A stretch of DNA of 64,000 bases from Amoebophrya sp. A120. Its lineage: Eukaryota > Protista > Dinoflagellata. Made by a program: the position numbers and the translations under genes. The notes under the pieces are model-generated. The model was not told the DNA's origin, did not search any database, and saw only the letters and a list, made by a program, of their open reading frames with translations. How positions within the stretch are numbered: position 1 is the stretch's first letter; every line of letters begins with the position of its first letter. The DNA lies in contig CAJINV010000002.1 in NCBI GenBank assembly GCA_905178155.1, forward strand, positions 8,017,224 to 8,081,223, read 5' to 3'. Of the stretch, positions 3,873 through 64,000 are shown piece by piece.

Positions 3873-5586
3873 TCAGCAACAAGTCCCGGTCTGATTTCGC
3901 TGGTAGGAACTTGCCCCCGCGCCATACTGGTTGTTGGGTGGTGGAAGCCCTATCTTGATCCCGTGGCTCGCCTGTATCATTGAAGTAGTTGTTTATCAGA
4001 ATACCACGAAAATTACTCCGGTTCTTTCACGTTCAGATTTCTTATTCTGATAAAAGAATTTGTGATGCTCGCACTGTCAAGAACTGCTAGAAAAGCACCA
4101 ACAAAAAACCCAAAAGCACTGTACGTCGTCGGTGAGGTTGTACTTCCCGTTGGTAATGTTGTTGTTGATTTCCCTAGCCGTGTTGATGAAGGCTTGCTCG
4201 GGAGTATCAAACGGAAAAGGCGCCCTACCACATAAAATTTGTTCTCATGCAAATAGCAAGTGGGCATCGAAACTAATGTGTACCAAGTTGTATCCCAATC
4301 CTTATGATGCACTTATTTACAACTATCGCAGTGACTTAGTTTCCATTCAATTCCCAAATTCGCAAGAATCATTAATTCGGGGCGATCTATATTCCCAACG
4401 ATACACATTCGATGCGGTTTTCGCGGAAGTCTCGATAAAATGCAGGCCGTGCTCCTTGGCAAATTTGCGGCCCTCTTCTTCAGAGACCTCGCGCTGGTTG
4501 CCCAAGTCAGACTTGTTGCCGATCAGCATTATTACCTGTATGGTTTTGATGTTTCTGTTGCCGTTGCCTGCGTGTGCTTGGCACGACAAACATGCATGAG
4601 AAAACTCCCTGTCATGCAGGTCCTCGCATCACAGATCCTTATCCTACTTCTGGCACTGCATGCAAGTGTATGACTTTTTCTACCATGCGATCATCCCGGT
4701 CGTGCTCTTTTGCTTCCCTCAGCCAATGCTCCAGGTGGTTGAACGTCTCTCTTCTTGTCACATCGTACACCAATAGCGCGCCTATTGCACCCCGGTAGTA
4801 TGACCTGATATTTCGATTTTTTTTTCATGCAGCGCAGCTCTTTTCTGCAAACCGAATATGAATATCTATCTGACATATCAGTATCACAAGAGACACCAGC
4901 CACGCAATTAAAAGAACTTATCCAGCGATAAACCCACCTTGTAATTGACTTGAACGACTCCTGCCCTGCGGTGTCCCAAATCTGCAACTTTATTGCCTTG
5001 CCGTCGATTGACCTCTATCACGTGCAAATCTATCGTACATGTGCGTGTCGCATAAGGACGTGGCTGCTAGCTACTTAGAAGCCTTTGCGATTTGCATCTG
5101 CCCCAGGCCAGGCGTATGCAGCATTTTATATGAAAATTATCATCCTTTTCAGCGCATAGTACCGTCTACATCTAATCTAAGTATTTCCACTGCGATCACG
5201 AATATGCGATGTATGATTTGCGCCGCATAGTATCAGCCGCGCGCCGAATTCCACTCCGATGGTGAGGTCGTGGTCAGTGCGGAATCGTTTGTCGGTAAAC
5301 TGCAGGAGCAAGCACGACTTCCCTACGCCCGTGTCGCCTTTTATGCACAGCTGCAAATCCATTGCATCCACCGCTCTTGGATTTTTTCTTGTCATGCGGT
5401 GTTGTAGTAACTCGTAGTTGCTTGTCATAGTGGCCCGCAGTTGCTTCTGTCAAAAAGATCTGAAGAGCAAACTGAAATCGCCATGCAAAAATTGGACTCA
5501 AGTGCGTTTTCAGGAGCGGGGGACACAGGAATAGCTTTCACATTGATATCGATGATTATGTACTTGAACATAAAATCGTACGACAT
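3873..5586 (-). CDS. RAB2: Rab2-like small GTPase, multi-exon
   Basis: [73 protein letters not shown]-terminal ..QTGTCC* prenylation motif. Confidence 0.93.
4205..4403. mobile_element. Degenerate TATC...GATA introner-type intron in Rab2
   Basis: Termini TATC/GATA; removal by the 4+1 rule gives ASNV|EQAF. Confidence 0.65.
5016..5229. mobile_element. Degenerate TA...TA introner-type intron in Rab2
   Basis: Minus strand TATG...GATA; removal gives [14 protein letters not shown] (intron CT...GG). Confidence 0.65.
5342..5548. mobile_element. Degenerate TA...TA introner-type intron in Rab2
   Basis: Minus strand TATC...CATA; removal gives YIII|GDTG (intron AT...AG). Confidence 0.65.
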
Positions 5587-6881
5587 GACGGGCGAATTTT
5601 CTTATTCGTCCGGAAAAAGCTCTTTGCAGAGATAGTGATTTCGACGTTCGACGCTTTTCTCAGTCCAAACGCAGTACCCAGCTGCAGCGCGCGCAAAAAA
5701 TTTTCCTGCGTGACGCAGTCCTGTTGTCCCGCAAAAGCACTTCGTTTACCGGCCGTCCTCAATTCCGTTTCGTCATGCAGCTCGCACGAGTGTATTCTGC
5801 AGGAAAAAGCTACATTGGAATGAAACTTGTGACCACTTCGGCAGCAGACCGCGTGCGACAAACGACTGGCTCAACCAGACTGGCCCACTCGTCTATTCGC
5901 CCTCACGAAGAGGAGAGGCGCGCTGGCGACCGCGCTGTCAGGAAAAATAGCAGCACACGTGATCGGGACGACTCCGAAGCGAACTATGCAGCTGGCGGAA
6001 AAATTTTGTCGAAGACCGGTGCGCGCGGGCCGCAAGTCAGTTCTGACAGAACTATCAAGTTGCAGCTCTTCAGAAAATTAAGTAGAACTTACTTTACAGA
6101 GCATCGACAACAAGCGGCCATCTTTGTTATCCGCCTTTACAGAGTTTCTTGTTGGTAAGTGATTGTGCCAGTTGTCTTTTTCTCGTCTGCGATACGGGTT
6201 TTTAGAAGTTGCTACTTACCCACAGCCAAAATACTTTTTCAAAGGTCAAGGTCTCTGTGTGTGTTTGGTCTGGTGCTTGCGCAACATTTTTCGTCCCCAC
6301 CTTGTACTTCCACATCACTGAATCCTGTGTAGTCGCAACTCCACAAAAATCGTAAACTGACACTTCGGCTCTCAAGACGCTGTTGAAGAGGCTTCGCAAG
6401 GGAGGTTTCTTCACGAACACGATCAATCGCGGAAAAATTTTCGCACGAACGGAGGTGCCAATCTAGTGGCCACTCACCCACCAAGATTCTCAACAATAGA
6501 TGATAATGTACACTTGGCCTTTTTTACAATCGACTCTGTATACAATCCATCTTCGGCGCGTATTACTACCAACTATTTTCAACGGTTAAGTAATCTGCTC
6601 ATCAAAACTCTCTTCCACCGTCAATGTAAGTACGTGTGTCCGAGAGCTGCGATGATAGATGTTCTTTTATTCTCGACAAGGTTCTGTTTCCACTGTAACT
6701 GTTATTAATTCCCACTGCATGAGACGGCGCAATCCGACCTCAAAGCTCGGAGCGTAGAGTTTTCTCGAGCTTATCCACAAGTGCGTTGTGCGTTGTATGT
6801 ACACCTGCACACAAACACCGTAGTAGCTAATTTTTGCTATCCGACGTTTCCCGCAACACCACGAGGTCGGCAAGCGGCTTA

Positions 6882-62500: not shown

Positions 62501-64000
62501 GAAACATGGAGGAGTTCGCCAACGTCGCGAGCAACAAATCTTGACAAAAATGGCACGAGCAGTAAAACAAGCAGATCAAAATCTGCAAGCAAGCAAAAAG
62601 ACCCGGCTGTCCACCCGAGGAAGCCCTTGCAGTCGTGGTCCAAAGTGTCGCAGGCGCAGCCGATTCAGGGCCTTGGGCCCGAGGCGCTGGTCCGCCGGGT
62701 TGCCTGCGGCGGGCAAAGCTGCGCCTTGATTGTGCAGCAGGCGAACACGAATGAGACCGCGCTCTTCACATGGGGAAAGGGGAGCTCCGGGATCTTGGGG
62801 CACGGAAATTACGACGACGTGTTCGTGCCGAGGCGGGTGCAGCTGAATCATCTGGCGAGCAAGACAAGCGTGACATCATCCAACGGTGGTAGCTTTTCCG
62901 GAATGAGTCATGGAACGACGGCGCACCAGAAGACGTGTTCTAAGCAGAAGTCTGGTTCAAAATCGAAATTGCACGCAGGAGGAGCTGCTGCACCTTCAAC
63001 GACGATTCCAGGCGAACAAAAACAACAAGCAGGGCGACAGGAAATTATTACACCGGCTGCTCAACACATCAACTTCTCGGTGTCTCAAGTGGCGTGCGGT
63101 CGCGCGCACATGCTGGTATCTGTGATGGGAAGCAGGACCACTAGCATCACGACAAACGGCAGTAGTGATGGCGGGGTTCATCTTCGTGTTGCGACGAGTG
63201 CTGAACAACTACAGCCTGGATCATTTGAGCAGGATAGCAGTTTTGTGCTTTCCTGCGGGCATCCGGACGACGGACGGTTGGGGCGGAGTAGCGGAAAATC
63301 CAACCTGCTGCTGCCTATGGATTGCAAATATGTCTGGGTCTGGAAGATTCCAACACTTGTCATGCAGTTTTTCCAAGCTCCGCCAAGGCTGGAATGCAGG
63401 ACATAGCATCACAGGTTCTGCAGCTCCTTGGTGATGCCTATTCTGCATGAGAAATGCCCTCTCAGCATGGCCAGAAATGGGGACCTTTTGCAAGTCGCAC
63501 AGCACAGATTTTTGTATGATCCGCAACACGCATGATAAGTTCGCATTCTTCCAGACCCAGACATTTTTGCAGTTGATACTGCCGATCGAAGAGCCAATCA
63601 AGAGTAGCAGCAGTTGTCAGGAAGGGAACAATGGTAAAGATCGTGATCATGATCTTCATAGGGCGGGTGGAACAAAGGTAACGAAAACTACTACTTCATC
63701 TGCAGACGACGATGGTGATCTGCTTATCGACGTGGAGCAAGCCGGGGGAAATCAAGATCATGTCCACTTTGGTGGCAGGCGGGCGAAAGAAATGAATAAA
63801 CAGCAAGTAGTGTTGAAACGGCAAGAGCCCCCGTCGTCTCAGACGATCTTCGCCCGCTACCTGGCCACCGGGGGCGCGCACAGTGGCTTCATCGAGAAGT
63901 CCCTTTCCGTGTACACGTGGGGGTGCAACCGGTTCGGCCAGCTGGGGCTCGGGTACGCGGGCGGTTTTTACCAGGAGAAGCCGCGGAAGGTGCGGTTCTT
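59589..64000 (+). CDS. RCC1-repeat (BLIP-II propeller) protein, 3' truncated by the window
   Basis: IASGPKHS, VSCGISHSLAL, VACGGQS..LFTWGKG..GILGHG, VACGRAH, ATGGAHS..VYTWGCNRFGQLG; three introners splice in frame. Confidence 0.85.
59696..59844. mobile_element. Introner, family 6 (nearly full hairpin)
   Basis: tgcaaaagtatcgtactcgtataaatgc / gcatttatacgagtgcgatacttttgca; termini TACG/CATA; DR GAAAA; splice gives MIE|NEQQ. Confidence 0.85.
60944..61227. mobile_element. Introner, family 1 (diverged)
   Basis: TAAG..gtctgggtctggaa / ..GATA; DR ACAGC; splice gives GTKQ|LNLL, in frame with the 61304 ORF. Confidence 0.82.
63316..63578. mobile_element. Introner, family 1 (opposite internal orientation)
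   Basis: TIR as family 1; DR CTGCC; splice gives NLLL|PIEE, running into an RCC1 repeat. Confidence 0.92.

Follow-up and report, generated by a model that had tools for sequence, protein, structure and literature searches.

In a 64,000-nucleotide (nt) stretch of the genome of the marine parasite Amoebophrya sp. A120 (assembly GCA_905178155.1, contig CAJINV010000002.1, positions 8,017,224 to 8,081,223 of the forward strand; called the window below), introns without GT-AG ends are excised in one fixed register. One cut precedes the left TA of an inserted introner element by 1 nt and the other follows its right TA by 4 nt, so that the messenger RNA (mRNA) keeps four bases of the left 5-base-pair (bp) flank and one of the right. 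We use k for the number of left-flank bases retained in mRNA; this 4+1 register means k=4. The elements are multi-copy, have terminal inverted repeats and a target-site duplication, and are removed precisely from mRNA, with exactly one copy of the duplication restored and with positions +1 and -4 to -1 free. Such a single rule had been proposed from the DNA letters (the sequence-only reading). It is borne out by six of six non-GT-AG RNA joints, by exact SRPK and C2orf69-like proteins and by Rab2 orthologs, and the flank pairs and TA ends were located where that reading had placed them. The register is real.

The sequence-only reading also noted that non-canonical introners are known in Amoebophrya, and this is indeed published: in A120 more than 60% of introns are non-canonical, with inverted repeats that begin with TAT and direct repeats of 3-5 nt (Farhat 2021, PMC7789003). 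The text of that paper denies a clear splicing signature and calls the intron borders 'variable' or 'unknown', and a figure legend calls them variable. The A120 spliceosome is described there as nearly complete with U1 small nuclear RNA (snRNA) undetected, and U11, U12, U4atac and U6atac as absent.

Evidence for the 4+1 register

Four RNA runs were aligned to positions 33250-53200 of the window, the test having been set beforehand, and all equivalent placements were enumerated for every joint. Seventeen RNA joints were analysed (15 out of 44 joints, together with one loose end and one pair of pieces). Eleven were GT-AG and six, all in the SRPK gene, were not. All six admit T at +2, A at +3, T at -6 and A at -5. 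The joints 34227/34438 and 34775/34981, the latter with the flanks CACAG/AAACC, have a single possible placement each, exactly 4+1; of the others, three are compatible with k=4 or 5 and one with k=2-4. Hence only k=4 fits all; the sequence-only reading, too, had remarked that several cases taken singly permit a neighbouring cut. A fixed k of 0, 1, 2, 3, 4 or 5 fits 0, 0, 1, 1, 6 and 3 of the six joints, respectively, and if k were drawn at random for each intron, all six would fit k=4 with a probability of 5.1e-4. The SRPK RNA contig has no spare letters from 34438 to 38506, and its 487 nt from 36622 to 38506 equal the modelled sum of exons.

For Rab2, the region beyond 53200 and most C2orf69-like junctions, protein evidence or open frames were used. 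Proteins encoded by the exons of the window match deposited models of Amoebophrya sp. A120 at 100% identity. The SRPK model built with k=4 reproduces the deposited protein in 794/794 residues across 16 introns, and the C2orf69-like model does so in 692/692 residues across 7 introns. These two deposited models derive from transcript alignments, whereas Rab2 orthologs of other organisms are independent evidence. In Rab2 intron 2 (GATAC/GAGGT) the conserved ARLISI appears only at k=4 (7/7 references). Intron 1 (ATCGA/AAAGG) is compatible with k=2-4 (6/7 references) and intron 5 with k=4-5. The other flank pairs cited in favour of the rule include 4+1 among their placements: ATGTG/CTCCC (k=4-5), TCCTG/TCCGG (k=4-5) and TTTTT/TTTTC of the C2orf69-like gene (k=0-4). 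In the deposited Rab2 model P0066 (GSA120T00010637001), the start lies within intron 1, which the model reads through; the conserved start is at 5586, and k=4 restores the conserved N-terminus. The rule corrects gene models, the deposited Rab2 being without intron 1 and having a wrong N-terminus.

Some observations limit the evidence for the register. The six RNA-pinned junctions all lie on a single contig of one run (X4, whose RNA status was inferred by program), and the deposited models may share RNA with the runs used here. Raw reads spanned the DnaJ gene alone, whose six introns are all GT-AG; in runs X9 and X10, no reads crossed non-canonical junctions within 33250-53200. The published Table S4 lists for A120 GA-AG (1.5%), GC-AG (1%) and GG-AG (0.8%; 3.3% together), which lack T at +2 (PMC7789003) and may be slid placements or another class. 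A chance fit, or a cut product picked by the contig while cut positions differ across the genome, in line with the published legend (PMC7789003), would agree with the single contig and with the fact that contigs drop rare variants. We regard this as very improbable, given the joint fit at k=4 and the choice of k=4 by Rab2 orthologs of other species. Moreover, T is the second base in each of the 18 predominant non-canonical motifs of Table S4, which individually make up 2-5% (PMC7789003). This pattern suits a code that allows as many as 64 end types, but the way in which aligners place slidable junctions may have influenced it; slidable duplications (201/229 exact, see below) account for apparent variability.

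The introns concerned are listed below with strand, terminal dinucleotides and evidence; the last four are GT-AG introns with TA at -6/-5.
4201-4404 (-): Rab2 intron 5, GT-CC; orthologs fit k=4-5
5012-5230 (-): Rab2 intron 2, CT-GG, flanks GATAC/GAGGT; only k=4 gives ARLISI, 7/7 references
5338-5549 (-): Rab2 intron 1, AT-AG, flanks ATCGA/AAAGG; orthologs k=2-4, absent from P0066
33467-33706 (+): SRPK intron 2, GT-CG; RNA joint, two placements, k=4-5
33758-33983 (+): SRPK intron 3, AT-GG; RNA joint, k=4-5
34228-34437 (+): SRPK intron 4, GT-GC, without end hairpin; RNA joint, unique 4+1, fold z -0.05
34776-34980 (+): SRPK intron 6, GT-AC, flanks CACAG/AAACC; RNA joint, unique 4+1
35076-35383 (+): SRPK intron 7, TT-CC; RNA joint, k=2-4, 5+0 excluded
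36317-36621 (+): SRPK intron 10, TT-TT, AG(-3) and CAG(+5) unused; RNA joint, k=4-5, fold z +1.69
36669-36953 (+): SRPK intron 11, TT-GG, perfect 5-bp duplication; deposited model, 487-nt exon sum
37094-37227 (+): SRPK intron 12, GT-GG; deposited model, exon sum
37322-37613 (+): SRPK intron 13, TT-AC, right end TG not TA, A(-7) kept; deposited model, exon sum
37661-37874 (+): SRPK intron 14, CT-CT; deposited model, k=3-4
38199-38506 (+): SRPK intron 16, GT-CG; RNA piece start 38506 gives k=3-4, deposited model
46280-46591 (+): C2orf69-like intron 1, AT-AC, 62-nt inverted repeat; deposited model
46645-46865 (+): C2orf69-like intron 2, GT-GA, AG ending 1 nt further unused; 99-nt RNA sum, deposited model
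46912-47179 (+): C2orf69-like intron 3, GT-CG, young main-family copy; deposited model
48234-48437 (+): C2orf69-like intron 4, TT-TT; k=0-4, RNA piece end 48229
48733-48974 (+): C2orf69-like intron 5, GT-CC; deposited model
49066-49405 (+): C2orf69-like intron 6, CT-CG; k=3-5
49495-49820 (+): C2orf69-like intron 7, GT-CG; k=4-5
57849-58104 (+): predicted intron, CT-CG, main family, oriented opposite to 46912; open frame after removal
59695-59848 (+): predicted intron, AT-AA; open frame
60943-61231 (+): predicted intron, CT-AG; open frame
63315-63582 (+): predicted intron, CT-GC; open frame
4805-4937 (-): Rab2 intron 3, GT-AG (donor GTG); deduced with Rab2 protein comparison
36093-36257 (+): SRPK intron 9, GT-AG; RNA joint
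41708-41917 (+): DnaJ intron 3, GT-AG; raw reads, contigs
52269-52510 (+): SWEET intron, GT-AG, without inverted repeat; RNA pieces

Constrained bases at the intron ends

When the 25 non-GT-AG introns of the window were aligned on their cuts, the 5' end read N-T-A-Y and the 3' end [CG]-A-T-A-N-N-N-N. T occupied +2 in 25/25 and G occupied +1 in 10/25, and only 2/25 ended in AG, so that neither the GT nor the terminal AG of U2-type introns is kept. Positions +5 to +8 were variable, in departure from the extended 5' consensus of U12-type introns, and the ends TAY and [CG]ATA differ from the CDG/CH'G motifs of Euglena. The [CG]ATA motif was present in 23/25, and C or G at -8 in 24/25. The sequence-only reading had stated that all such introns have T at +2, A at +3 and a TA ending 4 nt before the cut; T at +2 held throughout, while the right-hand TA was found in 24/25 (37322-37613 ends in TG). 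Position -7 was A in 25/25, whereas its mirror position +4 was not T in 7/25 (Fisher p=0.0096). TA ends had partly been used to find the unverified introns of the window; +4 and -7 had not.

A scan with the repeat ends gave 133 loci, and the best 80 of the 133 all lay on contigs prefixed JACKZZ01, a second assembly whose similarity to the window is confined to the elements. In 241 kb of it there were 237 distinct elements, against none in 133 kb of shuffled DNA. Eight of the 237 had flanks too short for scoring; of the 229 scored, 201 carried an exact 5-bp duplication, 93 were without a confident coding strand and 136 were kept as coding copies. The gene strand was called from the coding score of the flanks, blind to the motif (99% right in cross-validation on window genes), and the counts omit those ends of elements that the search pattern had fixed. 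Deviations among coding copies were 1/101 at +2, 0/101 at +3, 4/101 at +4, 5/110 at -5, 2/110 at -6 and 0/110 at -7. The split between +4/-5/-6 and +2/+3/-7 was thus 11:1 in the predicted direction (p=0.003), or 10:1 without one doubtful call (p=0.006). A symmetric repeat that decays neutrally or is held by pairing should change alike at mirror positions, and this was not what we saw. The right-hand TA was broken in 7/110 copies. Hence, the constrained bases are +2, +3 and -7, and the true 3' constant is A(-7). The proposal that the element termini supply the +2/+3 bases and a ruler for the acceptor is supported, with A(-7) in place of the terminal TA as the anchor.

Strand mutation bias was considered as a cause of the lopsided constraint and rejected, T>C and A>G both being on the sense strand. 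Among 22 noncoding-like copies (arbitrary strand, some calls likely false), five deviations were on the left and none on the right. In one copy (L067), whose coding status is unclear, C at +2 follows G, which makes a GC donor.

A 1.5-kb element of the main family at 312-1830, with the duplication CGTCC and extra internal DNA, has G at -7 on the strand of the adjoining open reading frame (ORF) 1822-3399 (-), whose stop lies 8 nt inside the element. It may be an unspliced copy or, if spliced, a counterexample to A(-7). An exact look-up of this ORF gave no deposited protein.

Every one of the 21 GT-AG introns in the window ends in CAG, and 18/21 start with GTA; T at +2 (21/21) and A at +3 (18/21) are thus shared with the non-canonical class. 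Their 3' ends are A-rich, without a pyrimidine tract. A is at -10 in 17/21 (p=3e-5 relative to the local A content, without correction for the 11 positions), which from base frequencies may be a fixed branch position of ordinary introns. The sequence-only reading had noted canonical introns of the same geometry. TA does occur at -6/-5 in 4/21; since neither [CG]ATA nor a residual inverted repeat is present in any of them, they are not demonstrably old elements. It had counted one Rab2 intron ending in ata-cag as an exception; there are two, both with A at -10 and both ordinary GT-AG in appearance. All five introns of the kelch gene are GT-AG and uninformative for the rule. The suggested drift of old introners toward GT-AG is not established: G at +1 was found in 7/12 old introns versus 40/136 young copies, and an AG end in 1/12 old ones, which is weak evidence.

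Candidate mechanism and known systems

Under 4+1 only 3/136 coding copies have GT-AG ends, and 6/136 under any equivalent placement. Main-family elements lie in the orientation of the gene in 35 cases and opposite to it in 29 (8 unclear). Because they splice in either orientation, their signals have to be part of the inverted repeat. Nearby AGs go unused: splicing at 36621 ignores AG(-3) and CAG(+5), and at 46865, despite a GT donor, it ignores the AG ending one base further. Read-through instead of splicing is unlikely, 121/136 coding copies having stops in all three frames. A preference for AG|G insertion sites was rejected, as no target bias was seen. An Rfam search of the window gave no match and no snRNA gene.

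On these data, a relaxed U2-type spliceosome probably relies on +2U/+3A, uses A(-7) as the branch point and cuts at a set distance from it, regardless of +1 and -2/-1. A spliceosome-like process is suggested by the +2T and +3A of the GT-AG introns, by the T at +2 of all 18 Table S4 motifs and by the nearly complete spliceosome. In steps, small DNA transposons that have TAT...ATA ends and duplicate 5 bp of their target sit in exons, and the two cuts of the 4+1 register leave exactly one copy of the duplication. The left element end would provide +2U/+3A, shared with ordinary donors of A120. A(-7), followed by a pyrimidine, would be the branch nucleotide from which the acceptor is measured. The spliceosome would do this chemistry without U1, and its second step would not depend on a G(+1)/G(-1) pair. 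Ordinary introns of the GT...CAG type would take another route, which uses an A near -10. We give about an even chance to the wider proposal that a U1-less spliceosome ignores the first and last bases and cuts 7 nt from the branch A, in a code covering most of the ~65% non-canonical introns; any TAT...ATA transposon with a 5-bp duplication would then serve as a perfect intron wherever it inserts and whichever way it points.

Several points count against this account. Branching at A(-7) is a candidate drawn from conservation. The usual branch motif is yUnAy, and the context of -7 fits it poorly, -9 being T in 12/25. In the second assembly alone, +4 versus -7 was 4:0 (p=0.06; 11:0 when pooled with the window); its copies are young, their splicing is predicted, and one coding copy (L115) has A at +2. 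All 16 combinations of +1 and -1 occur, whereas splicing normally needs a non-Watson-Crick pair of first and last bases (PMC13326754).

The weak match to the branch consensus and the C or G at -8 would also suit a second explanation, in which the register is the same and [CG]A(T)N at -8 to -5 is a motif bound by a protein, such as a changed U2AF or SF1, with branching elsewhere or variable. Two SF1 genes are listed for A120, and in Fritillaria divergent U2AF paralogs recognise non-canonical 3' ends (PMC13326754). However, a lone invariant A followed by a pyrimidine is a branch signature, and A120 lists one U2AF65 and one U2AF35; we consider this explanation unlikely.

A somewhat poorer case can be made for hairpin splicing as in Euglena, where pairing of the repeats would join the ends and possibly a non-spliceosomal machine would cut 1 and 4 nt from the stem. 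In Euglena introns, 5'-N3CDG...CH'GN5-6|R, the spacers are fixed and splicing depends on pairing (PMC12501133). Here, young copies are predicted to fold from one end to the other (P at least 0.9 in several), and the terminal bases are free. However, folding predicts a +2:-5 pair probability of at most 0.06 in four of the six RNA-pinned introns, and two fold no better than shuffles (z -0.05 and z +1.69). Mirror positions decay asymmetrically, which breaks pairs, and the +2T/+3A donor is common to GT-AG introns.

The relaxed U2-type spliceosome has partial parallels. The distance from branch point to AG is 2 nt in Yarrowia, 3 in C. guilliermondii and 4 in Giardia and Trichomonas (PMC2483917), which by our own count places the branch A at -6, -7 and -8; it is fixed in Entamoeba invadens too (bioRxiv 10.1101/2022.06.08.495308). 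Like A120, Yarrowia, Giardia, Trichomonas and E. invadens set the acceptor a short distance from a conserved A. These species, however, keep GT, AG and a strong branch motif, whereas A120 leaves both AG and G(+1) free and takes its motif from a transposon end. The Euglena introns are likewise transposon-like, with slidable repeats that hide the code, free terminal bases and fixed spacers, but their motif is another one, their spacers are 3 and 5-6 nt, pairing is required and a purine is preferred at the exon start (PMC12501133); in A120 conservation is asymmetric and pairing looks dispensable. Fritillaria borealis has non-GT-AG introns derived from miniature inverted-repeat transposable elements and spliced by a U2-type spliceosome (PMC13326754; review PMC11282704), but with preferred ends AG-AC and AG-AT, U1 kept and U2AF duplicated (PMC13326754). 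Introners of Micromonas, Aureococcus, Symbiodinium and Florenciella also have splice sites fixed relative to the target duplication and leave mRNA length unchanged; they carry or co-opt GY and AG (PMC9860276), which A120 elements mostly do not.

The closest precedent, the A25 and A120 introners of Farhat 2021 (PMC7789003), concerns the same organism and elements, with TAT repeats, direct repeats of 3-5 nt and U1 not found; its text gives no fixed register, +2T/+3A donor or A(-7), parts of which its Fig. 3 logos and S19-S23 may show. In A25 the repeats begin with TTA and the leading motifs are all TT-, so that +2T/+3A would be expected there as well, with a ruler specific to the strain. In the literature text covered (PMC7789003, PMC12130899, PMC11282704, PMC9860276, PMC11453091, PMC12005148, PMC12621601 and PMC13326754, with Roy 2023 and Henriet 2019 represented by citations or later papers only), neither the register nor A(-7) was stated for Amoebophrya. 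The elements themselves and the fixed-spacer codes of Euglena are already known; the A120 register and A(-7) are new as far as we found.

Both the source paper and a 2024 review leave open how Amoebophrya removes tens of thousands of introns without shared ends or a detected U1. With a fixed register and a single invariant A, the question becomes directly testable. If branching at -7 is true, the second step works without the pair of first and last bases thought to limit spliceosomes. It would explain mass intron gain, because no proto-splice site is needed, and the rule would explain how transposons land harmlessly almost anywhere in genes.

Other features of the window

Between ~21300 and 32800 there are tandem repeats, the duplicated blocks 22000-22400/30750-31090 and 23330-23500/30390-30550, and the long ORFs 23627-25036 and 27770-30094. 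By eye, the motifs of this region resemble those of a tyrosine-recombinase retroelement, which it may be; Pfam gave no match for the two ORFs scanned in it. Two intronless paralog-like ORFs at 9663-12464 and 13688-15982 (-), of 933 and 764 aa, have similar C-termini and are both deposited as such. At DnaJ positions 40937 and 41362, one fifth to one quarter of the X9 reads show C>T, which may be an allele, a strain difference or editing. Positions 1-240 contain tandem and inverted repeats of ~50 nt.

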